A stretch of 55,287 nt of DNA, the filler included, from Circinaria calcarea (Eukaryota): the NCBI GenBank assembly GCA_051942165.1. It is 4 parts of 4 records of this genome, joined end to end, with 100 filler letters (N's around TTAATTAATTAA, not from the genome) between each part and the next. Parts side by side here need not be neighbours in the genome. Positions count along the whole stretch, not along the records: positions 27,722 to 41,463 come from JAVECS010000476.1; 3 more parts are not named here. The stretch is one strand, 5' to 3'. The position numbers were made by a program, and so were the translations under genes. Below the pieces are notes generated by a model. It saw nothing but the letters and a program-made list of their open reading frames with translations. It searched no databases and was not told where the DNA came from. Numbering within the stretch: the stretch's first letter is position 1; each line of letters begins with the position of its first letter. Shown here in pieces: positions 27,722 through 46,606 of the stretch.

Positions 27722-28435
27722 ATCCTGAGTACTGACATCCGCCGATGCTTGGGCTCCCGCCGAAGAGTGGGCATGGCTCGATGCAGTTTCCTCTAGCGGC
27801 TCAAGGTGATGGTGCATCATGTTTGGCATCGCTTCAACGGACTCCTCTGCATTTGGCCTGTCCAGCCCACCATGAGGCGGCATATGGCTGTCATACTCAT
27901 TGGCTAAACTTAACCTACTTCTTCCGCAGATTTCTGCTATCTGATCAATCGAGCCACGAACTTCGGGGTCAATTGCCGCTAGGATTTCTTGAAAGGAGAA
28001 TGCTGACAGAGGCGGAAGTTCGTGTTTGATATCCTGAGAGATCTCGTCCAAGCTGGATTCCGTTTCTTTGGGCCTGCTCGGCCGGGCGAATTTCATCTTG
28101 CTATCGTATGACCGCACCAAAACCGGTTGCGTAGCACTAGCTGAGGATCCGCCGGGAGTTGCACCTGTGGGTAGAGACCTCGACACTAGGCCATTTAATC
28201 GCCGTGGTGGTGTGGTGCGATGACTCGAGTTGGCTGCATTGTGTTGAGGTCGATGGGCAAATTGTTCGTCATCGGCCGGGTTTGGAGAGTTGGAAGTTGG
28301 ACGAGTTGGAGAGGGGACTGTAGAAGTAGGAGATTCTCCAGCGCAACCATCTCCCTCACGAGTCATGCCGTTGACAACGTGTACCTCTGCAGCACCTTCT
28401 TCTGCAGGCGAATCACCTGCGAGTCTGTCCAGCAT
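27722..28435 (-). CDS. Hypothetical fungal protein, 3'-truncated
   Basis: ATG-initiated open frame running into the gap, with an ordered block LPPLSAFSFQEILAAIDPEVRGSIDQIAEICGRSRLSLANEYDSHMPPHG inside low-complexity sequence. Confidence 0.65.
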
Positions 28436-30391
28436 GTCGAACGGTCGGGGCGACGGGGGCAGCGCCGAGGCGATTGGCCGACAAATTGATTACTGCATGA
28501 GTCTAAGGGACAGCTAAAACCGTGCGGTGCAGGTTCTGAATCACTGCGAGCAAAAGAAAAGTACGAGTAAGGTTTGGACGCTGCAGAGCGAGGGCGGCAC
28601 AATGCAGGACGAGAGGTGCGCTGGCAGTTGACGCGATATGGTAAGTTCCAACATCCCATCGACCCCGCTATTCCACCCTATTCTATCGGCCCAGTCGATT
28701 CCACCCGCCGGCCAACTGCCAAGCACCACTCGGTCGGCAGAAGCCCCTCGGCGGTGCATACACGTTCAGTCATGTGACCTCTAACGGTAGACGGTCCATT
28801 CGATCGTCTCCTCTGATGGAAGATTGAAGGCCAGATTGCGAGGGGGATACGAGACAGGAAGACCCCTCAGCTTCCAACCACTCTTCTGGCTGGGCGAAGA
28901 TCACGAACAATCTTCAGAGTGATTTACTCACGCGCTTTCGATCCGAGAAACTTGCATCACATTTCATGCAGGCACAATCAAGACATCAGCGAATTGCGCA
29001 TTAGGGCTACAGCACCCGATTCTAGATCCTGATATCCGACTTGCGCGGAAAATTTTGTGCTTTGTCCTTTTCTCCTTCGCCCTTACGCGCATGCCGAGCA
29101 CGAGAGAACCATCCCTTGAGCATGTCGCCATAGCTGAGTTGGTTGCAGCAGTCTGGAATAGTAGACTCCTCGCGGCTCGACCTGCAGCAACATTTCATAG
29201 GCCAGAATAGGAGAAGCAAAGCGCAATACCAACGAGAGAGACGATTAGAGTACGAACGACGGGTTGGCAGGTCAGACTGCAGACTTGGGAGCCGGGGCTG
29301 GGGGCACCGTTGTATCAATTTGAGTTTCCAGGGCTAAAAGTCATGGATCTCCTGTGTGTAGCTGACGTTGAAGTCGTACTAGGGGTCGTAGTTGGGATAG
29401 CAGTGGATTTTGATACAATGCTGGCGGCTGCTGCGACAGGATTATTAGAGTCAGGTGGGTTTGGCCCCATATCTTCGACAGCCATGTGTACAGGCGATGT
29501 GCGTCGTAAGGATGCAGAGTGAATAGCAGCGGTTGAAGTGAATTGGAGAAAGAAGTAATGAATGGATGCTAAGTTAAAAGTTGATAAGGAAGGTGAGGAT
29601 AGTATGTGAGAATGGCTGGAGATAGCCAGTAGATTGTCATAGCACAAAGCAGATAGATACACTGAAATTCAAGAAAACACTATCGAACCATTCAATTGAA
29701 TCGGTTAATTGCAGAAGGGAATCTTAACCCTCTTTGAGAATCATAGCAAAGTCAAAGCTTTCCACCACCCGAGTCCTCCACGACATGCCTCATCACTGCC
29801 TACAATTCCTCCCCATGCCACAAAGCTGAAATAGAGATAGGTGTAGATATATATGATTAGTCCTTTGAAGTCATCGTAACCTCGTTGTCACCAGTAACTG
29901 ACATTACAGGCTAAAGTAACCAGCTAAAATTCGAGTTTCGCAAAAGGCACAGCCTCCAGCGTTGGGGGCGGGATCTCGAAGCGCCACATTGACACACTGA
30001 AGGATCAACGAACGCATGCATAGCCGAGAGCTACCCAAAAAAAAACCCTTCTGGCATTCCTTGATTAAAGTCTGCATTCTCAAAGTGTTGGCAAGGTCAA
30101 AGTTTCTGGATGGGTGATTGCGCAGCGAAACGTGGAGGAAAACATTCGGCCTATCAAGCGAGAGCAGCATTGGCGGTACTCCAATGGAGGACCTGGGCCA
30201 AACGCGGCTATTATCCCAGAATACTGCTAGTAAGCATAATGCGAGTGATTTTTGAGGCAAGTCCGTCCATTGACAGCTAGAGTAGCCTAAAGATTAAACA
30301 CATTGACATCTTGAGCAAGTAGGACAAACGATCCAAACGGAAGAGGAGGCATATCAAAGGAATCACGACGAGTAGTTGATAATTAAGAAGG

Positions 30392-32058
30392 TCAAACCCC
30401 TACCTCCCCTAGTCTCGGTGCACCACCCTCCCAATCCCATCTCTCGTAGTACCTAAACACCAGTTCGTAGCCGTCCAATTCGTGCACGATACGATCCACT
30501 CTCCGATACCCTCTGATGCACTCCATCCTTGAACGCTTCTTGGCGGCCTGACGTTCCATAGCCCTGAGCTCTGTGACCGTGTCCGAGTCCTCTCCCACAA
30601 TTGCCACAGGCTTAGCTTCGAACAGTGTGACGGAGAAGCGACCAGGTTTGAAGATACTGACAATTTGCTCCACGACCTCGGCCGTCTCTCTGCCAGTTTG
30701 CCTGCTAGGCACGTTTGTCTCGAAGGAAGCGTAGCTGCAATTTGCCTCCGGAGTTACGTGCACCGTAAAGTAGTGCGTACCGCTTGAACCTTTGGGTGCA
30801 GGAATGACACCATTTGCGGAAAAGCCGCACGGAGTAAAGAGATAGGCGTCAATCCTGGCATCAGGGTATTTCGAAGGTGGATAGATATCTGCCAGACCTG
30901 AAGCCTCGGATACGATGGTACCGAGAGCATGACCTTCTGTTGTCAGTTCGGTCGGGAATAAGTCCTCGTCATCGGAAGCAGTAAGTTCCTCGTTTTCAGA
31001 TGAAGTATTGCTGAATACATCAATCTCAGGTTGATGATGAGATCCTGACTCTCGAACAGGACTTTTCCCGTCGAGACCCATACTCTCGACGTTCGATTCA
31101 GTTATGGTAGCAAGTCGCAGGTGCCGCTCCTTCTTCGCTTTGTATGTTCCTTGATAATAGCGACCTTCCGCGACCGTACTCGCATGATCGAGGTAGAACT
31201 GCTTGGCATTATCCTCTTCAAGGTCTGTCATCAGTACTTCCAAGGTCTCATCTTGATCTCCGACCGCATCTTCTGTCCCTTGTAGCCCAACTGGTTTAGA
31301 CCCAGGCAATTCCAAGATCTTGGTCTCGGTTTCAGCTCGCCCTGGTGTAGCCGGTGGTGTCAATAGTGTATTTGGCTCGGTGAGATAGAGATACCAGTGT
31401 TCGCCGTTCATCTTCCCAATCATGTACGCACTTCCCCCGCGAAAGAGCTTATCCAAGGACTTGACTTCATCCCGCCAGCTCCGATGTGGCCCCCGCTGGC
31501 GATCCGGAAAAAGAAAGTTCTTCCGGCTGTAAAAGACACGGTATGGAGTTGCAGCCGCTGCAATCCCGGTGGCAAGGTTGGCCACGGTATGGGGGAAGCC
31601 TGCGGAAAGGGCAGCAATTTCTAGGATCCTGGGTAAGCCACAAAGCAGCGTCGTAGTCCCACATGTCTTTAAGATAAGCTTGTGTGGGAAGATAAACATG
31701 CTCGACTCGGATAAGAGGTAGGCATCAACATGCTCGGATTCGATGATTGACAGAACTTGACAATTCACCAAGTCAAGCATGTCCTTCCATACCTCGGATG
31801 GCACTGCTTTCAGCCCTCCTGACACTGCACATGCCGGTGTTGCTGTGGCACTCGCACTGAACCATACCTCTAAAAGCTTCTCGGGACCTAGAACACAGTT
31901 AGCCACATCAAGTGACTTAGGCATGCGGGCGACATACCCTCAAATTGATTGGTAGAGTCGAGATCTGCCGCGACCTCACGATTGATGGTCAGATGCGGTG
32001 TCTCACTTACTGAAGATGGAGAAGCAGTATAGTGTTTGGGTATCTCAATATTGACCAT
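30392..32058 (-). CDS. SPE2: S-adenosylmethionine decarboxylase proenzyme; exons 32058-31938 and 31887-30392
   Basis: FEGPEKLLEVWF is restored across intron 31888-31937. Also the YLLSESS autocleavage (pyruvoyl) site, ILKTCGTT, FTPCGFSAN and HVTPE..SYASFETN. Confidence 0.96.
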
Positions 32059-32473
32059 CTCCGTGCAAGAGCTTCGCTCAGTAATGAGTTCTGGAATTTC
32101 TTCACAAGTACCAACCACTAGAGAGATTGTTCTCGCTCTGATTGCGTATTACAATCGATCCGTCGACGAAAAATGCAGGGCCCGCTCGTGATGCGTAAGC
32201 CCACGGCACGTGGGAGAATAGGGAGGCTGGCTGTCGCCAGCAGCAGTAGGCTAGTTATCCAACAACTCGAAAGGGCGATTATGGAGGTCGAGCGGAGAGC
32301 GGAATGAAAAAGACCTTTTGCCAAGGAATGATGGCTACTATTGGGGTACCTCGTACTGGCAGAGTCCGATACCTGGATAAGTATCGGGTCTAGCAGACGA
32401 GGTCAATCTGCTCCAAAAAAGGATACTGTTTCAAGATTATAGGAATGCTTGATCGGGTGGATGTTGACGGGTG

Positions 32474-32638
32474 TTATCGAGGCCTAAGAGTGCGATATGT
32501 CGTTAGTACTGTATAACTAAATTCGGTGAGATTGAGGGGACCTGGGCAAGTGGCGAAATGCCAACGAAAGAGATAGAAAGACTGGTAAGCGTACTTTGCA
32601 GGCTTTGATAGGAAGCGTAGAAGGTCCTTGCGGCTCAT
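32474..32638 (-). promoter_or_regulatory. Putative spliced uORF in the SPE2 5' leader (MSRKDLLRFLSKPAKPR*); intron 32484-32594
   Basis: This is the only minus-strand ATG between 32059 and 32941. The intron has a GTACGC donor, a perfect TACTAAC branch point and a TTAG acceptor. Confidence 0.6.
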
Positions 32639-32681
32639 AGAGAATCCCGAAAAGGTTTCGTTAGCTAGCAGTGGCGAATCC

Positions 32682-32724
32682 AAGCCAGATTGGCACGGAA
32701 CCAAAGGTCTGTCCGTGCTGGCTT
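32682..32724 (-). other. Predicted RNA hairpin in the SPE2 leader
   Basis: AAGCCAG/CTGGCTT + CACGGA/TCCGTG + ACC/GGT stems, with a 5-nt and a 3-nt bulge. Confidence 0.45.
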
Positions 32725-34602
32725 CAAAGTTCTATTGCGGACGCTGTGGAGGACGGTCAGGATCAAGACGGCGGTAGGATGCGTCGAGTGTCAACTAGGG
32801 CACGGCGAAGGGCTTCAGCAGCCGTAAAAAAGCGATTGGTCCCAATGGTCGCCTGGTCGGTAGATGACTCCCTCCAACAGTAGATGATATGTAAGAGAAA
32901 TTCTAAGGGAGAGAGGCTTTGGAGACTCGAAGATTTGTGCACATGAAGAAGCCTTTAAACTTTTTTTGGGCGGTTCGCCGGGCCCGAGGCTTATGACGCC
33001 AGCTTTAGGGCTGAGGTTTAGTTACCTTTATCTGCCCTAATCTACGCTGTCGTCTGGCGAGATGATAGACATATGCTGCTGAGAAGTGCATCACATGCTG
33101 GAGTGTAAATGTGTACTGCCTTACTACTCCGTATGCCCTCACGATGCATGAAATGCGAAAGGTAATCACCATGTCAGGTATGGTATAGCCACTTTGGAGC
33201 CTCGATATCTGCCAAGCGAACATGGAAAGCTCCCTGAGTCACGTGGGCAACACAATACTCGGTATAAAAAACAATTAAAAGATTGTAGGGCGGAAACTAT
33301 TGGGCAGCCTCGTTGGGGTTAGATACCGCCAGGAACACACATGTGTCCAATCTGAAAATCACCAGCCAGGGCGAGAATACCTGCGGTAAGGTGCTCGGGT
33401 CTGACGATCGCAGGCTGCAGATTCCGACTCCTTGTTTCTCGAATCGAAGAATCAATCGTACAGTAGTAGTATGTGTAGATGGCCATACGTCGAATGACTG
33501 TTTTGCAGCGACGATCCCATCTGGGTGGAAGCACGTTCTGCCCTTTCCTACCGAACGGTGATTCGCTCAGACTGGGGGCGGATATGAGGTGCTGCTCGCG
33601 TGAAGGCGAGATTGTGGAATACCACCCGGGCACGCCGACGCTTAGAGTATGCGATGCCAACTCATCGCTGAATGTAAAACGCATCAAGGCTGCATTTCGG
33701 TCGTCGTTATCGCCCCTGAGGCGTGTCCTGTAGGTGCTTGGTGTGCATGCTTTCGATATTGGGGCGATTGCACGCAAGTGTGGCCTGGCGCTACGCCAGT
33801 CGAGCTGCGAAGCCTCCAGACCGGGTCGAATCCTGCGGTGGAGTTTTAAGGTACTGCGACGATGGTCCGATTTGGACAGCACGACAGCTCCAACAGTCAG
33901 CGTGGCAGCAACGGGTGGCTCATTGTGCTCCTTGCGGGTGCCTCGTTCCATTCATGTAGGGTGATCGAATCGGAAAACAGCAGCAAGCGGAAACAACTAG
34001 TCCAAGTAACTGGTTCGCTGCTAATGGCCAGCAACCTGTCAGCAGTCGTCGCAGCGGTAGCGTCAACGGCCCCCTGGTCGGCAAAGTAGTGGCTCCCAAC
34101 CAGTCATCCAGTCATCCAGCAATGCGGGAAAGGTGGGAAAGGTGTGGGGGGGGGGAAGGGGGTTGCCCGCTGGAGCGTCGTTGGCCGAGTCCTTTATGCA
34201 TGAAGATGCAGCGAATCCCGCCGGACGGTGGGAGAGAGAATGATGCGCTTGGTCACGCATTCAACAATCGCCCGTATCCTGTTCTGAGTCTGGAATCTGG
34301 AGTCTGCCCTCGGTCTGCAGACGAAAAACCGAGGGAGGCCATCATCTATCTAAACGACTATCGTCGCAAAGTTCTCAATCGGATTTTCCATTTTCCTGCC
34401 ACTGGAATGCGCGCCCCAGGACGGTCCCACCTATTCACGTCGGCAGATCAGATCTTCCTCGATGCTTCCATGAGTACGTACCGGATCTCGTCAAAGCTAC
34501 TTCCTCCAACGGACGTGTGATGTCGAGACAACTCGTACGGCCCAGTTCACGCTGTCTACCGGTTCGAGCGCCCCTTGGGAGAAGCACGCATTAGAACTGA
34601 AG

Positions 34603-37600
34603 ATGGTGGAGCCGGGGTTTGGACTCCATGGGCACATGAGGAGCATGTCGTGTACGTGACTCTACCTCTTTTGAAATCTTCTGTCCTCATGCAATTGCAT
34701 CGTCCAGGGGGGCCTGGATTTTCTGAAGTTCACGCTGCAAAGGGCACGCATGTATGCTGACCGTTGAAGCTCTTGCCTCCACGATCAAACTCGTGTCTCC
34801 CGGCAATAGATGGAGCCCCTTATCGCCCCCGCCCACCGTCTTGCAGCACGAGAAGGACTTTCCCGATGAACTGAGTATCCCACTACCACCTTCATGTGCC
34901 TCTTCCGACAGTGGCTATGAGATTACAGCTGGCATGGAGCAGGATCCTACATCGCTGCCGGATTTTGATCCGGCCCTGGCACGTCCTGAGGAATGCCAGA
35001 ACCTGGAGACGGGTGTTGGAATATCGGAGGACATCAGGCCAGCCGAAGAACCTTCTCGAGATCCAAGCATGACTTCCCAAGAGGTTCAAGCCCCTACGGA
35101 TTCCAACCCCCGGTCACCACCATCACTGGAGGAACTCATCCAAATGGTCCGTAAAGATCAATACGAAGAGGTTTGTTTGCGATCGCTACAACATCAGGTG
35201 CATAAACGTTTACGTCGCTGTGCTTTATTGCAGCGAGGCAATCACCTGCAATCTCATTTATATCGTCGGATGATCGATGACTTCAAATCGGAGAATAAAC
35301 CGGACTTTGGTTTATTGTATAACGACAGTCGAAGGCTACGGGAGTTCTGCTCTACTGATGCAGCCTTTCATTTCGATATGCAGAAATCCCATGGAGGCCA
35401 CAAGGTCAATGCCGGAGATGAAGGCCATCTAGCCTCCTGGATCCATGGGGTGTCGACTGGCGCAAGGGATTTGATCAGTGACTTGCTTCAGAGGATAAGG
35501 ACGGACTCATGTTTTCTCGCTGGTCGCCTGACTACCTTGTCCCACTCTCAGATCTGTGCTCTAGGACAGTCCCATCCTCTTCCAGTGACCACGGCATCCA
35601 TCTCCCAAGTGCAAAAGTATGTCTTTGGTGGCTCAGCCAGCCCTTGGAACCGTGACCACACTGCACAAGATTCTGGTAACCATGGCCGAGCACGCTCAAC
35701 CTTGCAGCAGAGTCCTCTTTCCTTAATTCTCCATTCTCTTTTTGATAGTACCTGTGAGGGTGGATGCCTAGAATATCAACGCCGCATTGATGTATGGTCG
35801 ACCGCCTGCGCCCAGGTTATTATGGACGGCAAACGTGGATCCGATGAGCTTTGTATGCATATTCTTGATGAATTTACCAGATCGCGACCATGGCCGATGC
35901 AGTTGCAATTGGAGCCATGCCTATTGAAGCTGATACAGGACGGTGCATTTCTGCTTGATTCATTGGGAAATCAGCCGGTGGATTTCATAAAACCAGCGGA
36001 ATTGAGCAATGCCAGGGTTGCTGTTGCTACTTCCGAATTTTTTGAAAAGGCTATGAGGAATGTCATCGACCTTATCACGCGCAGCCCTCCCACCATGAGC
36101 ATGCCTGGCGTAATTCTGGATTTAATCCGCAACGTTCTGGGTAAGATCAAAAGCCCCGACAAGCGGACCAAGGCACGGAATTTCTTTGTGTCTCGATGGT
36201 ACTGTGCATCATTTCTATCGAACGCCTTAATTTATCCAGAGGTACGAGCTATCGTACGGAGGTACCGTACTCATCATGCTGACTCAAATACAGAGCTGTG
36301 GTATTATGATGAAACACTATATCAGTAGCGCTGTGAGACAGAAGATACTGAAAGTGCTTGCTATTCGACTTCAAAAAACCGTAGTTGAAGTCTTATCTTC
36401 GCAGTCAGTTCAGCAAATCCCTAACATTGAATACGCTAACGAAAATGGATGACAGAAAAAGTCCAACCATGATTAGCCCTGAAATCCAGGCTGGCATTGA
36501 AAAGCTGGTGCTCATTTTCGAGCCTGATTCAAGGGGGAACTCAAACTCGAGACATCGAACCGTACGGGGCTCCGAGGCGACTCATAAACACTTCCTTATG
36601 CTCAGTTTGCAGGATGTTCTATCTGTAGCTGAAGCACTTTATCCAGAAGAAAGTCCTTTGAAAGCATACAACTTCCCTACTAAAGGGAGTATATCTTCTC
36701 TGACGTCCTTGAGCGCTGGGTCTTCCACGCTCACATCTGGTGTCGCGGCAGAACGGACTGGGACAGCGTCTTCTGATACCCCTAGCTTCAGTGGAACATC
36801 TATTAGTAGTAACACAATCTCCAGTGCGACGTCTGCCGATCAACCTGATAGTCCTTCCGTCCATGACCAGAGAACTGGAGCAAGCAACCTCGAACATCTA
36901 AAGGATGCTTTGAATGCCAACTATGGGATAGACAAAGGAAGAGTCAAAGGTTTCATAATCGAACTAAAACGACTTTCAGAGAGCCAAGCAGTATCCAACG
37001 ATCCTCTGCAAGTTCGTTTTACCGAGAAGCTGACCTGCTTCTATATACAGTCTGATAGCAAGGATTTGGCCTTCAAATCTGATGACGTGGTAAGCAACAC
37101 AATAGCCCCTATCGCTCAAGACGAGCATGATCTGGACAGGCACATGGTGGAACCGTCAAATCTGGAAAGAGAGACACGAATAGTGCTGGAAGCTATCACA
37201 AAATTGGCCCAATTTGATACCTCAGGGTTCGATACACATGGCGAGTTGAATACTCTTGAGGCTCAAATCCATGCCAAAATGGTTACTTGTCAATCGCACT
37301 ACGATTTCCAATCAGCCCATTTTTGGTGGAGAGGTTTGCAAGCTTGGTCTTCAGTCCCGCAGAAGTCGCGAGATGAGATATTCCGCAGTATGGCGAATTC
37401 TATCAAGGCTAAGATGCAACAAAGGTCCGTGCAGCGAGATATCTCGAACTCATGGATTTTCGTTCTCCAAGGCCGTGAAAATACCTGCGCGAGCGCTCTG
37501 AGTAGACAGGAAGATCTGTGCGAGGTCTTAAGAGATAAGATGTGGTACATATCCGATGTCAGGCATTCGGCAACGTATGAGGATGCACTCAACGTTACCA

Positions 37601-39720
37601 GAGCTTTGAGGTCAATGGCAAGATCCTTACCGGTTAAACAGACGGGCGTAACGGCTTGGGCTCGACAACGTCTGAAGACATCAATCGGATTCGAGAAGGC
37701 TCAAGCACAAACACTAGAAGCACTTGCGGCAGAGCCTGCCTATGGAGGTCCCGCCAAACTGACCGATCAACAAGTTGAAGGAACGTCAAGATGGTTGACC
37801 GATCACAGCATTGAAAACTTTTGCAAAGGGGAGGAGAGGATCCACAGGTTCTGCCTTGAGGTTCAGAAGTCTGCCAATAAACTTGTTGCGGAGAACTTGA
37901 TAAAGAGCCCTGTCTTGTGGTCCAGCAGCCTTTATCAACATGAGGCTCGGGAATACGGGATAACGTCTCGTCGGTCAGCATCTAAGGAGTCATATGAACA
38001 AAGAGCTGAAAGAAACGACGTGGCTAACGGCGTAGGTTCTCCACCGAGAGATCCTACTCCAACATTCTCCGTTTCCATGCTGCCACCGTATACACCCGCC
38101 AACAGTGCCGTTGGACCTGGCTTCGGTGTACACCATAGTCTAAAACAGGGGAGCAGTTTTCAGCCTGAATCAGCCTTACCTAAATTACTCAGACATCATC
38201 CGACTACGTCTGGTAGACCTCAGCGTTTCAATCCTGATGGTGTATCGGGGAACCTTGCCGAGTATAGTGCAGGAGCGAGCATCGTTCCACCTCTCGGTCA
38301 AATCTCGATGTCTTCCTTACCAACATCTCCTTCATCAAGCAAGCTTGGCTTTGTTAGTCGGTTAAAAGAAACGGCAACGAGTCTTCTTTTGAGCGATCTT
38401 GGTTATCAGTTGTGGAATCGTGGCAGTGAAACAGACCGCTGGATATCCTCTGATAAGACGTCACGGCCAAATCTGAACAGGTCATCGACTCTTCCAATAC
38501 CTTCTCTTTTACCAGCCCCCTTAATTGATCATGGAAGTTGTACAGAGAATGGTATCGCATCCGAACCATCTAACATTGCGAGCACCGAGAATATAAAGAG
38601 GTTTAATGCTGGTGGCGATGATCATACGGCAACCTCTCTTAGAGGCCCCATGATAGGCGATAAGCCAACTCGTTGTAGCAGAGAATCTCAATTTCCGTAT
38701 CTTGAAACATACGAGAAACTCCTCACAAGCTTCAGTCTTTCTTCCGACCCAAGTTTGAAGATTAATTTACTTTACGAGTTGACTCTTATGGTCAAGAGCT
38801 CAATGCACGATTTCTCCTATTCGCCTCTGTCGGCTGACACCTTCTCGCCTTCCGTCCCCATCAACTCTTACCTTGATGAGCAGAGATTACCGGAAAAGCG
38901 CAGTACAGGCAAGCCAAGGACCCGGGCAACAAGATTGGAGGAGGTGGTTGCGAACTGCGAAGAACGGCGAAGAAGCAAAGCACAACATCAAAAATCCGCT
39001 CATAGCGGTGCCGTTTACGGGGTTGAACAGGTGGAGTCAGTTATGTCTGATATGACCATGGAGCCTCACAGCCCTGACGTTATTCCCGTACTAAAAATGA
39101 TCCTGAATGACTCCTCCCTGCGACCCAAGACCCTTTTTCGAGATCTGCAGTACATCGCCGCTCTAGTACCAGCCTCCATACTCGACAACACACCCCAAGG
39201 TAAGGCCTTTTGGGACGTCGGTCTCGCTGCTTTGCTCCTGAAAGCCGACATCTGCAAGTCAATGGTCGACCGCGCAAACCAGATCGTAGCTTACCATCTT
39301 GATAAGCCAAAGCAGCCTTCAAGTGATATCAATCAAACTACCTCCAGGACAGAAACCCAAGATCTTACTCTTGCTCAAACCACTCTATCCACTGCAGCCC
39401 GTCTGTATACCATCACTGCTCTAGAAGGCGACCCCACCGCCGCCCGCGAGCTTGCTCTTTTCTACCTCACCAATCCCGAAATGGTCCCGCGTGTTACACT
39501 TCCCCTCTCTCGGCCCAGTGAGGTCTTCAAATCATCTTCTGCGGCTCTGGGGTCGGATCGAGGTGGGAAAGCTGGACTGGAAGGGAAGCCTGAGGAGAGG
39601 GGATTGGATCCGCTGACTTTTGCGGTAGCGTTTCACTGGATGGAGTTTGCTGCCAACGGGGGTGATGCTGATGCAAAGGCATTCTTGAAAGGGAATGGGG
39701 AATTGGGGAAAGGATGGTGA
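34603..39720 (+). CDS. Large (~1630 aa) hypothetical protein with RasGAP-like N-terminal and VPS9-like/Sel1-like C-terminal segments; introns 34652-34769, 36242-36293, 36404-36455
   Basis: ORFs of 524 and 1111 aa join in frame through GT-AG introns with CTRAC branch points. Domain calls rest on motif resemblance only. Confidence 0.75.
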
Positions 39721-40504
39721 GCATCGGTATATGGATTTACGTTTGGGGGCGCAATGGAATTTTTGGGGGGGTGGGGGGTGGTTCCGCGTTTGGACAGGCT
39801 GGGATAATGGAGTGAAGGCTTGGATACTCAAAACCGGTAGATCGAGGCGGCTTTTCTGCTTTTTTTGTACGATACCATCTTAGCGAGCATTGAAGCTTGA
39901 TGGGTAATTGATTGGTTCCGAAGCTCTTTAAATTAAAAACCTCTCCGTCCTTTTTTAGCTAATCTGCTGGATCCGTCTTACTCGCACAGATTTACTGATT
40001 GACAATAACACCGGGGGATGACCCCTGGTTCACAAGCAAGCCAATAGCTTATCTTATCGACTTCGCATCTCTCTCTCTCGCCCTCCTCCATCTACATAGG
40101 TACTTCATTTGGCTCATGTTCTTAAGCGCTCTCTCCCGCCTTGCCCATGCCCCCCCCCGGGAGTTCCTTCCTTCCTATTTAAATATTGAAATGTTTATGG
40201 TGTTGATACTAATAACTTATCTCATGTTCATGTTCATGTTCAGATTGTTAGTTTCTTTCTTTCGAATAGGCTTTTTAAAAATGGCCTATCGAGCTGGGTT
40301 CTGACACGTGTGTTTTGGGTCTCTACGCGCGAAACGCGGTTTCGCATCGGAAGTTATATCTTTTACCTCCAGAATAATGAATGGGTTTGTTCTCTCTCTT
40401 TTTTTCTAATCGATAATTGTTTGCTGTTTGCTGTTGCCGTCAAGACATTTGGAGTGAGGGAAGGGTTAAGGTTTCTTAAGAAGAAGCTTTTGCGGTCGGA
40501 TTCT

Positions 40505-41463
40505 ATGCAAATGCCTTTCCCTGGCTATTATATCATACTACTTGTCAATCTCACCGTTCACCTTCTCGCAACGCCCATCATCCCTGTCGAACCCCGACTT
40601 CGATCCCTTCCACATGAGTCGCATGCACCCCGCTCACGACCTCTGGGTCCCCGAGCCGTTGCCTTAGGCCCGATATCTGACCCTCCAACGCAATCCTCAT
40701 CCGGCTCCACCGCCCTCCAACCTGGCTCCCTCTACTCACCGTCTTCCATCACCAACCCCCTCATCGAAGTAACATCCCGCAGCCTAGAATCCCGCGTCGT
40801 CCACTCCAACTCCCCATCTCACCACCTCCAAAAGCGCGTTCGCGCTCGTCCCCTGAATGTCTGTCCCCTAGGCGACGTCTTCACAGCCTCCCGCTGCCAA
40901 CGCTACGACGGCCTCCAAGCCTACGTCATCCATTGTTGGCACAATACGGCGCATGTGGCCACCCCCACCATGATCCGAGGCTCCTGCACGCCCGGGGAAA
41001 TCTGCGTTCCCGGCCGCCTGGTCCCGAACCCCTCGGAGCCCGGCCTGATGGCTGATATGGCCTACTGCGTGTCCATGGAGAACTTTGTCAAGATTGCGGA
41101 AACGCAGATCGCAAAGATGGAGCGCAAGTTTGTGTACACGCCGTGGTGGGATCGGCCTGCGTACAAGGGGAGTGGCGGTCACGTCCTAGCGATCCTGGGC
41201 GATCTCGAGGGTAGGCGTAGCGTGGTTGCGGATAGCATCAGCATGATGGCGCAGAACGATATCCCGATGCGCGATGGACCGTTGATAAACCCACTGGCTG
41301 GGGGGCCGATGAAGGGCGCGAGCGAGTGCCGGAATTGCGCGGAGCTACGCTTGGACGGCGTGCCCGAGGGGACGGCCAAGGTGGAGTTTGATGTGTTTTT
41401 GGGGGCGAGGACGGCGCGGGCGCTGCTGTTTGTGCTGGTGGATGGGTTGATGGACCTGGGGAT
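40505..41463 (+). CDS. Secreted Cys-rich protein, truncated at the contig end
   Basis: Signal peptide YYIILLVNLTVHLLA-TP, a Ser/Pro-rich pro-region ending in LQKR (Kex2-type site), then a domain with 8 Cys. Confidence 0.7.
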
Positions 41464-44201: not shown

Positions 44202-46606
44202 CGCTTGCTCACAGGGCTTAATAGCCTGGAACTGGAACGTGGAGTTGGTGGTAGAATGCTGAGAATGGAATGCTATGGCGACAGGAAACCCTGAAGACAT
44301 GATGCTGGAGAGTGTGTATGGGGTCAAGGGGAGGTGGGTAAGGCAGCTCAGGCTCTGAATAAAGTTGGCTCAGGACAAACCACCAAAGACATGCATATCT
44401 GAGGACTGGATGATGTCTACACCAGCGTCACTGATGCATTCGTAAATATGCGTACACTGTACCATGACCTTCATGCTTCTGGACTTGTTTGTTCTTTGGT
44501 GATCGGGCTTAGGCTTGCGCTATCCGAAGTAGGAAGTATCAATCTCGGGTATCTTTCCACGGACCAACTGCCCAGCAGAAAGATACCACAGCATGAGGCT
44601 CAGCAGAACCCACTCACAACAGGCAGATTGGTCTTTGCAGAGACATCGGTGTCATGCTGAATGCTCAGATAAATGCGTCCCATGGTTTCTATGCATCCGT
44701 GAAGCTGGCAAAGCCAGCAGCAGTCAGGGCTAGGATGCTGATTGTTGGCATTGGAAAGGGGCATTGGAGGGGATTGAAAGGGGTAATCAAGCCAAAGGAA
44801 GAAGGGCACTATAACAGATCACTAACATTCCTCACGGTTACCATCGACGAGGGATGTGGGAGGATAGAGATTGAATAAGGAGACTGAGTAATGTAGAAAG
44901 CTAGCCTCCCATCCGAAGCTTTGGTGAAACTCTATATTTTGGTTTCAGTGCTTATCATGATTTAAAGAAATACGAGACTAGATCTCGACAGGAGCCTTTC
45001 AACAACAGCTCCACTAGTAACTTCCGCCATCGATTTAAGGCAGCATTGATAGAGATCCCTTGACATGACCCTAGAGCTAGCTTTGGCTCTTTATCTTGCT
45101 AACCCTTGTCATTTTCGATATCAATGGCTTCAAAGCAACCGTATTCCTCATGCAGGTTTCAGACTTGGTAATAGGAAATTCTTCTTCCCTCGTTTCTATT
45201 TGATAGGATAGCAAACTAGCCCCAGTCAGCGTACCTTCAAAAGAACATAGAAGTGTGCAGCGTTTGCAAATATAAAAGTTTTCATTGACAACTTGGAAAT
45301 GAAAGACTCACCCTTGACTATTCATATCTTCCTTCGAAAGCCGTCGACAACATACCGTCCTTGCGTAAATCACCTTTGCCGGAGTCCCTCAACGTGTTAT
45401 TATATATCGGGACATTCTCACAAAAGGCAGACCATTTAAATCTGGCACGTAAATAGATTTATCAACATAGGATCAAACTTGCAGTCTGGAAGACTAGAAG
45501 CATCTTGCAATGCTCATATCATCTTCTATTAGCTATTCAGGACCCCGGTCTCGATGTTAGATAAACATCCTAAGCTCTCCCGGAGTCATTTCTCTGCGTC
45601 TATACCAAATTAAAGACCGCCTAGCTGAAGTATGTAAGGTATTCAGAGCTCCCTCAGGCAATAATAACTCCTGATAATATGGTAGAGCTTATACGGTATG
45701 AATGTTATCGGGTAGAAGTCGGTGCCAATTGCAGGGGTTAGGTTAGGGTTTGAGTGGTTGCGTCTAACAAGGACAAGACATGGTATCCTTAGCTTCGATG
45801 GTCGAGATTCGAACTCCACAATGGGACAATACTTGAGACCGTGATCTTCCCGCAAGTCAAGCCACAGCCATGAAAGATCTGTAGAAATAACAGAAGTTGC
45901 TAGGTAGATGAATCTGCAAACCTGGCAGTCAAGGGGTTCCGGTATGCCCCAATGCTAAAAGAGGGCCAATATGACCAAATTGATCCCATCTGCCAGGTTG
46001 CCAGTGTTGTAGTCTCAACAACAACAACGCCTTAGATACGTCGATGAGTCGATGTACTTGTGGTCTCGAGTCAAACGATGCGATATTAGAGGGTAATGAA
46101 CCGGTCTCCCTGCGGCTTGCGATACCTCCTCTTGAAGTCGATTGGCGAAGCATGCTTGACGGCTCTGGAACACCTTTAGTAGATGGCAATGATGCTCAGA
46201 CAGTCGGACTGTTGATAACGACGACAAAGACCACTACCCTGAGGCCATTAGGAACAGAGTCTGGAAGATCATACTAATTCGAACAACAGCGCACCTGTTC
46301 CCGGTGTATTTCAATCATCTTATTGTCTGTACATTAATATCGTCACTGTGGTTTTTCACTACTTTTTACGTGGGGGAGCTTTTTCGGAGGTCGGCTTGGC
46401 GGACAGGGATCCTTAGCGTGATTGTAGATCAAAACAAAGCGAACGTCGATACTGAAAGTTTATTGCTCAAGAGCTCTTGGATGTCGACAAATTGGATTCC
46501 TGTATCTCGTTGCTTCTTGCATGTGCTTTTCGTGCTTCTGTGATGAGTTCAGGGCAGTTATTCTGAATCATCCAACTTCAAGAACAGTACAAAACCACCG
46601 GACAGG

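Follow-up and report, generated by a model that had tools for sequence, protein, structure and literature searches.

Introduction

[quoted passage not shown] Here we describe the 5' leader of the AdoMetDC gene (SPE2) of Circinaria calcarea, in a stretch of 55,287 nucleotides (nt), filler included, that joins four parts of GenBank assembly GCA_051942165.1 (hereafter the window). The locus lies in the part taken from record JAVECS010000476.1 (positions 27,722 to 41,463), with the gene, its leader, the uORF and the hairpins all on the minus strand.

AdoMetDC leaders of Pezizomycotina fungi are known to carry uORFs (Ivanov, Atkins & Michael, 2010; PMC2811004). Supplementary Figure 1A of that paper aligns the uORF from 25 Pezizomycotina species, with the consensus MSPKDLLRFLSKPAKPR and with switches between UUG and CUN leucine codons, and its Supplementary Figure 2 gives two fungal examples of the spacing between the uORF and the main open reading frame (ORF), 405 and 441 b. 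Section 4 places a proline at the penultimate position of AdoMetDC uORF peptides in all except vertebrates and the sea squirt, and presents the mammalian and plant uORFs as stalling and repressing in a polyamine-dependent way. The mammalian AMD1 uORF encodes the hexapeptide MAGDIS, 14 nt from the cap; according to the same paper it is of independent origin, and it probably stalls at termination in a polyamine- and peptide-dependent manner. Plant SAMDC leaders are described there as having two overlapping uORFs, tiny and small, of which the small one (48-55 codons) encodes a conserved peptide ending in PS-stop and represses the main ORF, start choice being tied to context.

A second described element of fungal AdoMetDC leaders is the SDC motif, a hairpin with a stem of 11 base pairs (bp) that 26 fungal species carry upstream of their SAM decarboxylase genes (Li & Breaker, 2017, BMC Genomics 18:785; PMC5640933). 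In the reporter work presented in that paper, stem-breaking mutations raised expression and compensatory mutations restored repression, and binding of spermine or spermidine was not seen.

The uORF of the Circinaria calcarea Leader

With one leader intron removed, the only ATG in the AdoMetDC leader of the window opens a frame of 17 codons that encodes MSRKDLLRFLSKPAKPR and ends at a TAA stop (32476..32474). This peptide is letter-identical to that of 5 of the 25 species in the published supplementary alignment, namely Coccidioides posadasii, C. immitis, Ajellomyces capsulatus, Uncinocarpus reesii and Trichophyton rubrum; one residue separates it from the published consensus. All 17 codons match the pattern M-x-x-x-DLLRFLSKPAKPR-stop, and the penultimate residue is proline. 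The uORF stands in the leader of an AdoMetDC gene: the exon 2 product matches SAM_decarbox (PF01536) in Pfam at E 6.9e-113, and a single 2328-nt RNA record from a relative (see below) joins the uORF and the AdoMetDC coding region. The main AUG lies 415 nt past the uORF stop in the window and 318-469 nt past it in 40 loci, a spacing close to the roughly 400 nt of the two published examples. Gene, leader position, codon number, penultimate proline, TAA stop and similar spacing are all shared with the uORF of Ivanov and colleagues, and we found no difference in the element itself. It is virtually certain, in our judgment, that the window uORF is the known Pezizomycotina AdoMetDC uORF.

The feature is thus already known. 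A preliminary description of this stretch, made from the sequence alone, had proposed a fungal version of the AdoMetDC uORF; the proposed element is real, spliced and conserved but not new, its exact peptide having been in print since 2010. A string search for the peptide in paper texts returned 0 matches, since the sequence stands in a supplement and not in the main texts. The words "intron" and "splic-" are absent from PMC2811004 and its supplementary file 1, and an intron in codon 15 is not stated there. As far as the accessible text of the two papers (PMC2811004 and PMC5640933) goes, the additions made here are modest: conservation of the codon-15 intron position across Pezizomycotina, conserved start and stop contexts, extra conserved hairpins and the eroded SDC stem of the window.

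The leader itself is depleted of ATGs. Across its 883 nt (32941..32059) the uORF ATG at 32638 is the sole one, whereas 2000 mononucleotide shuffles of the leader held 10.79 ATGs on average and only a fraction of 0.0005 held one or none. Further 5' the next ATG stands at 32944, and within 305 nt 5' of the uORF AUG (uAUG) the window contains no other AUG. In these respects the preliminary description read the locus correctly: the single minus-strand ATG ahead of the SAM decarboxylase start, its weak context (tctATGa) against the strong context of the main ATG (gagATGg), a contrast kept in related loci, and a 111-nt intron with the signals GTACGC...TACTAAC...TTAG (32594..32484), which is spliced in the RNA of a relative. 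It erred in setting proline next to the stop codon, since the uORF ends Pro16-Arg17-stop.

Conservation of the uORF in Related Loci

To survey related loci, metagenome contigs were scanned with a degenerate pattern for uORF residues 5-15, yielding 51 loci (41 distinct). Loci identical around the uORF were collapsed and the window was added, giving 42 sequences among which near-duplicates remain (about 34 distinct intron lengths). An ATG stood exactly 12 nt 5' of the pattern in 51/51 loci, and a GT followed the matched exon-1 stretch immediately in 50/51. Every one of the 50 intron-bearing loci had exactly one downstream AG that restored (A/G)-CCN-Arg-stop; by our own arithmetic on base frequencies, about 0.003 such sites would be expected by chance in the 400 nt of a locus. 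AdoMetDC exon 2 lay 436-644 nt past the uORF stop in 47 of the 51 loci; the remaining four end 305-554 nt after the stop, too early for exon 2. The N-terminus encoded by AdoMetDC exon 1 is also conserved among related loci. The leader intron occupied the same phase-2 position in codon 15 in 41 of 42 distinct sequences, with lengths of 50-265 nt.

Start and stop contexts were similarly uniform. Position -3 of the uAUG was a pyrimidine in 42/42 sequences (T in 33, C in 9) and +4 was A in 38, while the main AUG had a purine at -3 in 40/40 and G at +4 in 38/40. TAA served as the uORF stop in 31 sequences and TAG in 11, and the next base was C in 40/42. Within the uORF, residues 2-4 were variable and the third positions of codons 5-16 were free to vary. 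Codon 6, for example, was CTG in 19 sequences, CTT in 13, CTA in 6 and CTC in 4, and the codon for Arg17 was AGA in 28, CGA in 11 and AGG in 3. With synonymous third positions varying, and Arg17 and leucine codons switching while the residues stay, the last 13 residues (DLLRFLSKPAKPR) are under selection at the peptide level.

These patterns also bear on whether the conserved stretch might be an untranslated RNA or splicing element and not a coding uORF. A conserved intron adjoins the stretch, and the surrounding leader contains much conserved RNA structure, as would suit such an element. Its variation, however, is concentrated at synonymous third positions, its arginine and leucine codons change families with the residue kept, and the positions of the ATG and the stop are invariant. 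We consider a non-coding explanation extremely improbable.

A small extra uORF is also present 20-130 nt upstream in many of the surveyed loci. Seven of these (L004, L013, L015, L016, L018, L047 and L051) have an upstream ORF ending in a TGA that overlaps the uAUG (ATGA), an arrangement reminiscent of the overlapping tiny and small uORFs of plant SAMDC; no such ORF is present in the window.

Transcription and Splicing in a Relative

RNA evidence came from assembled contigs of four metatranscriptome runs of one study, which were compared with the window over 30000..33600. Their source is a relative and not the same organism, most aligned pieces being 90-95% identical to the window (roughly 93%). 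The 2328-nt record (record 9 of run X2) spans 30408..32909 with both the coding intron and the leader intron removed. The spliced leader joint, 32482/32594 (with ends that read CT..AC on the plus strand and therefore GT..AG in the direction of the gene), was found in three of the four runs (X1, X2 and X4), and all contigs that cross the leader intron site are spliced, though contigs can hide rare isoforms. The mature leader of the relative has at least 271 nt 5' of the uAUG and, once spliced, a length of about 740 nt or more. Contig cover stops at 32909 and has no bearing on the transcription start or on expression level; in the window the start is predicted to fall between 32943 and 32909.

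Within uORF exon 1 the relative's RNA differs at 2 of 45 nt, and the boundary of constraint in this comparison falls sharply at the uORF AUG. The 65 nt of the window directly 5' of the uAUG (32639..32703, minus strand) correspond to 67 non-aligning letters in the relative's RNA at the 90% threshold.

Spliced RNA, which the preliminary description had put forward as a check, was found for the leader intron in the relative, and the published alignment and our survey show a peptide conserved across Pezizomycotina with synonymous change free. Of the three computational results that it named as contrary to its proposal (transcription starting below 32474, no splicing, no peptide conservation), none was obtained.

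One surveyed metagenome contig (L022:1-2701, 2701 nt in all, 393 of them 5' of the uAUG) is without both introns. L011 and L043, whose N-terminus is the most similar, have both introns, and L022 is probably an mRNA-derived contig within the metagenome collection.

Intron Retention and Alternative Splice Sites

The preliminary description further suggested that the choice between retention and splicing tunes uORF length as a switch, 17 or 54 codons with the same Pro-Arg-stop end. It was right about the window: the 111-nt intron is stop-free in frame, and the unspliced frame encodes 54 amino acids up to the stop of the spliced frame. Introns of two further loci, L027 (99 nt) and L041 (54 nt), also read through to the same stop. 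Against this, the window and these two are the only 3 of 41 distinct loci with same-stop read-through, and intron lengths leave remainders of 0, 1 and 2 on division by three in 14, 15 and 12 of the 41, with no bias toward multiples of three. In 28/41 the 5' splice site itself creates an immediate stop, because the intron follows the second base of a lysine codon and the consensus GTRAGT then reads AAG-TRA; the unspliced product in these loci is a 15-residue peptide without Pro-Arg. The uniformly spliced RNA contigs, with the limit on rare isoforms given above, also speak against retention. As a conserved design, a splice-tunable uORF length is contradicted by these results, and as an explanation it is very improbable; the 54-codon in-frame form is a chance property of the window sequence.

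A different route is offered by Neurospora crassa, in which two 5' splice sites are used with one 3' site, and the isoform Sp-II lacks the uORFs but retains the 3' part of uORF 2 (Li & Breaker, 2017; PMC5640933). Since this isoform keeps just the 3' part of uORF 2, the published description implies the same intron-in-uORF layout. An alternative 5' site that removes the uORF start would let splicing decide whether the uORF acts at all. GTAAGT or GTGAGT occurs 254-298 nt 5' of the uAUG in eight surveyed loci (L003, L020, L031, L023, L024, L034, L036 and L045), which could match the Sp-II route. The uORF intron is moreover kept in 41/42 loci, as against the nearby coding intron between AdoMetDC exons 1 and 2, which is absent in 6/38 (L012, L032, L035, L039, L048 and L022). 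The first five of these are genomic loci that all keep the uORF intron, and the leader intron is therefore retained more faithfully. In the window, by contrast, no GTRNGY occurs within 500 nt 5' of the uAUG, and the relative's RNA has joints for two ordinary introns and one replaced block and no others. Unlike the N. crassa leader as described, the window has a single uORF and lacks an alternative 5' site upstream, and we regard this route as quite improbable here.

Structures Downstream of the uORF

Features of the locus are collected in Table 1. Between the uORF and the main ATG, the alignment of 40 spliced leaders contains two conserved blocks upstream of a three-hairpin module. S1 is a candidate nested stem-loop, seen in the alignment, that is absent or shortened in some loci, and block A includes the near-invariant CGACCUCC(A/C)UAACG.

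Table 1. Positions of the AdoMetDC gene, its leader, the uORF and the downstream structures along the window.
Feature	Position	Strand	Description
AdoMetDC exon 1	31936..32058	-	41 codons, MVNIEIPKHY...NQFEG; main ATG 32058, context gagATGg
AdoMetDC coding intron	31886..31935	-	50 nt; joint 31885/31936 in RNA contigs of runs X1 and X2
AdoMetDC exon 2	30392..31885	-	497 codons plus stop; Pfam PF01536 SAM_decarbox
AdoMetDC (SPE2) 5' leader, ATG-depleted	32059..32941	-	1 ATG against 10.8 expected; at least 32909..32059 transcribed in close relative
uORF exon 1	32595..32638	-	ATG, codons 2-14, first two bases of codon 15 (MSRKDLLRFLSKPA + AA)
Leader intron in uORF codon 15	32484..32594	-	111 nt, GTACGC...TACTAAC...TTAG; spliced joint in relative's RNA
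uORF exon 2	32474..32483	-	last base of codon 15, Pro, Arg, stop TAA (32476..32474), then C
Stem-loop block S1	32349..32411	-	GCAGA..CCUCG UCUGC .. CCGAUAC/GUAUCGG .. CGAGG; alignment of 40 spliced leaders
Conserved block A	32272..32334	-	CA..AUUCC..GGA..UUC..CGACCUCCAUAA..; alignment of 40 spliced leaders
Three-hairpin module	32142..32249	-	covariance-model match, H1 + H2 + H3
H1	32241..32226	-	GCUGGC/GCCAGC
H2	32214..32200	-	CCCAC/GUGGG
H3	32190..32161	-	homologous to 11-bp SDC-motif hairpin; 103 nt 5' of main ATG

Pairing in the three-hairpin module was tested on 39 loci (32 distinct rows) with the window left out. Pairs formed in 96.3% of cells, and six pairs had double-sided changes; neither the observed paired percentage nor the covariation score was reached by any of 500 shuffles, and pairing fell to 28-45% when partners were slid by 1-3 columns. 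Rfam had no family at E <= 1 for the window leader or for four related loci with intact hairpins. Because the SDC motif is evidently not in the Rfam library, we built our own covariance model; constructed from the 39 other loci, it matched the window at 51.8 bits (E 8.7e-14). That the block might be coding sequence was ruled out by a 1-nt deletion in six loci (L008, L012, L026, L032, L035 and L039) and by its covarying pairs. A second match of the model within the window, at 44647..44726 on the minus strand (12.4 bits, E 0.06), covers an H1-like part only (CUGCUGCUGGC..GCCAGC) and is probably due to chance; this segment reads as a hydrophobic coding stretch and has no AdoMetDC context.

H3 is the counterpart of the SDC motif, an equation that we drew from the published verbal description of the motif and not from its alignment. 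In the 39 other loci it is an 11-bp hairpin in a SAM decarboxylase leader (CUCAGGCGGAC/GUUCGUCUGGG) with 96.9% of cells paired. The window hairpin has the position of the motif upstream of a SAM decarboxylase gene but departs from it in the stem, where 5 of the 11 pairs are non-standard in the cmsearch alignment; H1 and H2 are intact. The minimum-energy fold of the window is without the H3 stem and is no better than those of shuffles (z -0.45 over 108 nt and +0.05 over 56 nt), in comparison with z -2.55 for L033 and -3.40 for L001. The SDC stem is half eroded in the window, and this lineage seems to have lost most of it while keeping the uORF and the two preceding hairpins. The SDC motif is also described as a single hairpin, whereas in these leaders two further conserved hairpins precede it. 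H1 and H2, directly upstream, show compensatory changes in some loci and fall outside that single-hairpin description.

Splicing and structure together invite the idea that the codon-15 intron is a working part of the sensor and the leader a composite regulator of splicing, translation and structure, in which the splicing state would decide between a sensing uORF, a harmless uORF or none. This idea draws on the intron position being kept in 41/42 sequences from diverse Pezizomycotina and surviving loss of the coding intron, with splicing alone assembling the Pro-Arg-stop end. It draws likewise on the 15-residue peptide encoded by 28/41 unspliced RNAs, on the 3' site serving a uORF-deleting upstream 5' site in some lineages, and on three or more conserved hairpins downstream, one of them published. 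We hold it to be unlikely, though less so than either splicing route above by itself; if it were true, the window would be a natural variant in which the SDC stem is lost.

Proposed Mode of Action

Our preferred reading is that the locus holds an orthologue of the known Pezizomycotina uORF, acting through a polyamine-dependent hold by the nascent peptide. As an explanation of the whole we give it a probability of about 0.7; the stalling mechanism taken separately is, by analogy with the described systems, rather probable.

The weak uAUG, with U at -3, would be skipped by some scanning ribosomes, which would go on to reach the strong main AUG. Ribosomes that translate the uORF would be held by the nascent peptide at or near its stop. 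Of the eukaryotic termination contexts, a stop codon with C as its next base is the least efficient, and the Pro-Arg-stop end of the uORF stands in this poor context. High polyamine levels would strengthen the hold, so that following scanners would be blocked, reinitiation lowered and AdoMetDC synthesis reduced. At low levels termination would be quick, and the short uORF and long spacer would permit leaky scanning and reinitiation. The leader intron would be ancestral and constitutively removed, its splicing assembling the Pro-Arg-stop end, and in other fungi the downstream hairpins would contribute further repression through their structure; in the window the SDC stem is half eroded.

The data show that the uORF exists and is conserved, that the leader is transcribed and spliced, and which start contexts it has. 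Translation of the uORF, stalling and the response to polyamines are what we infer from the mammalian and plant systems, to which the likeness is partial. MAGDIS is likewise a short uORF in an AdoMetDC leader. Its peptide, however, is unrelated, six codons long and without a penultimate proline, and it is cap-proximal, while the window uORF has 17 codons and, judging from the relative's RNA, is preceded by 271 nt of leader or more. The small uORF of plant SAMDC shares with the window a conserved peptide and a penultimate proline. The plant leader differs in its tiny and small pair of overlapping uORFs, where the window has a single 17-codon uORF that ends in PR-stop and no other ATG in 883 nt.

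Several points weigh against the preferred reading. The mammalian and plant peptides are not homologous to the fungal one, and the mechanism is borrowed by analogy. Literature searches that covered few subscription journals found no functional test of a fungal AdoMetDC uORF, and Li & Breaker (2017; PMC5640933) list the role of the uORFs in expression as an open question. The RNA support comes from a related organism, from one study and from contigs, and is silent on transcription start, level and rare isoforms. Lastly, the uORF served as the bait of our survey, in which residues 5-15 were fixed by the pattern and loci without a uORF could not be counted; free of this bias, and thus the proper support for conservation of the peptide, is the published supplementary alignment of 25 species (PMC2811004).

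A simpler function would be that of a constitutive dampener or gatekeeper, in which the uORF imposes a fixed reduction through leaky scanning and reinitiation, or through coupling to mRNA decay, with no sensing of polyamines. The weak start context and long spacer are compatible with simple leaky scanning and reinitiation, and the literature searched contains no report of a polyamine response in a fungal AdoMetDC uORF. Against this, a dampener that works independently of sequence would have no need of a conserved peptide. Here 13 C-terminal residues are preserved from class to class while synonymous change is free, and a Pro-X-stop end is common to AdoMetDC uORFs that evolved independently (section 4 of PMC2811004). 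A dampener without sensing is an unlikely reading to which we nonetheless leave some weight, and polyamine-dependent hold by the conserved peptide remains the one that we favor.

Conclusion

The window adds no new kind of element. What is gained is independent RNA evidence that the mature leader contains the uORF and that the uORF relies on splicing, together with a survey of the conserved intron position and of start and stop contexts, and a clear negative on intron retention. For annotation, AdoMetDC gene models of Pezizomycotina should include a long leader with an intron in the 5' untranslated region. As a natural variant with an eroded SDC stem, the C. calcarea leader could help to separate the effects of the uORF from those of the hairpin.

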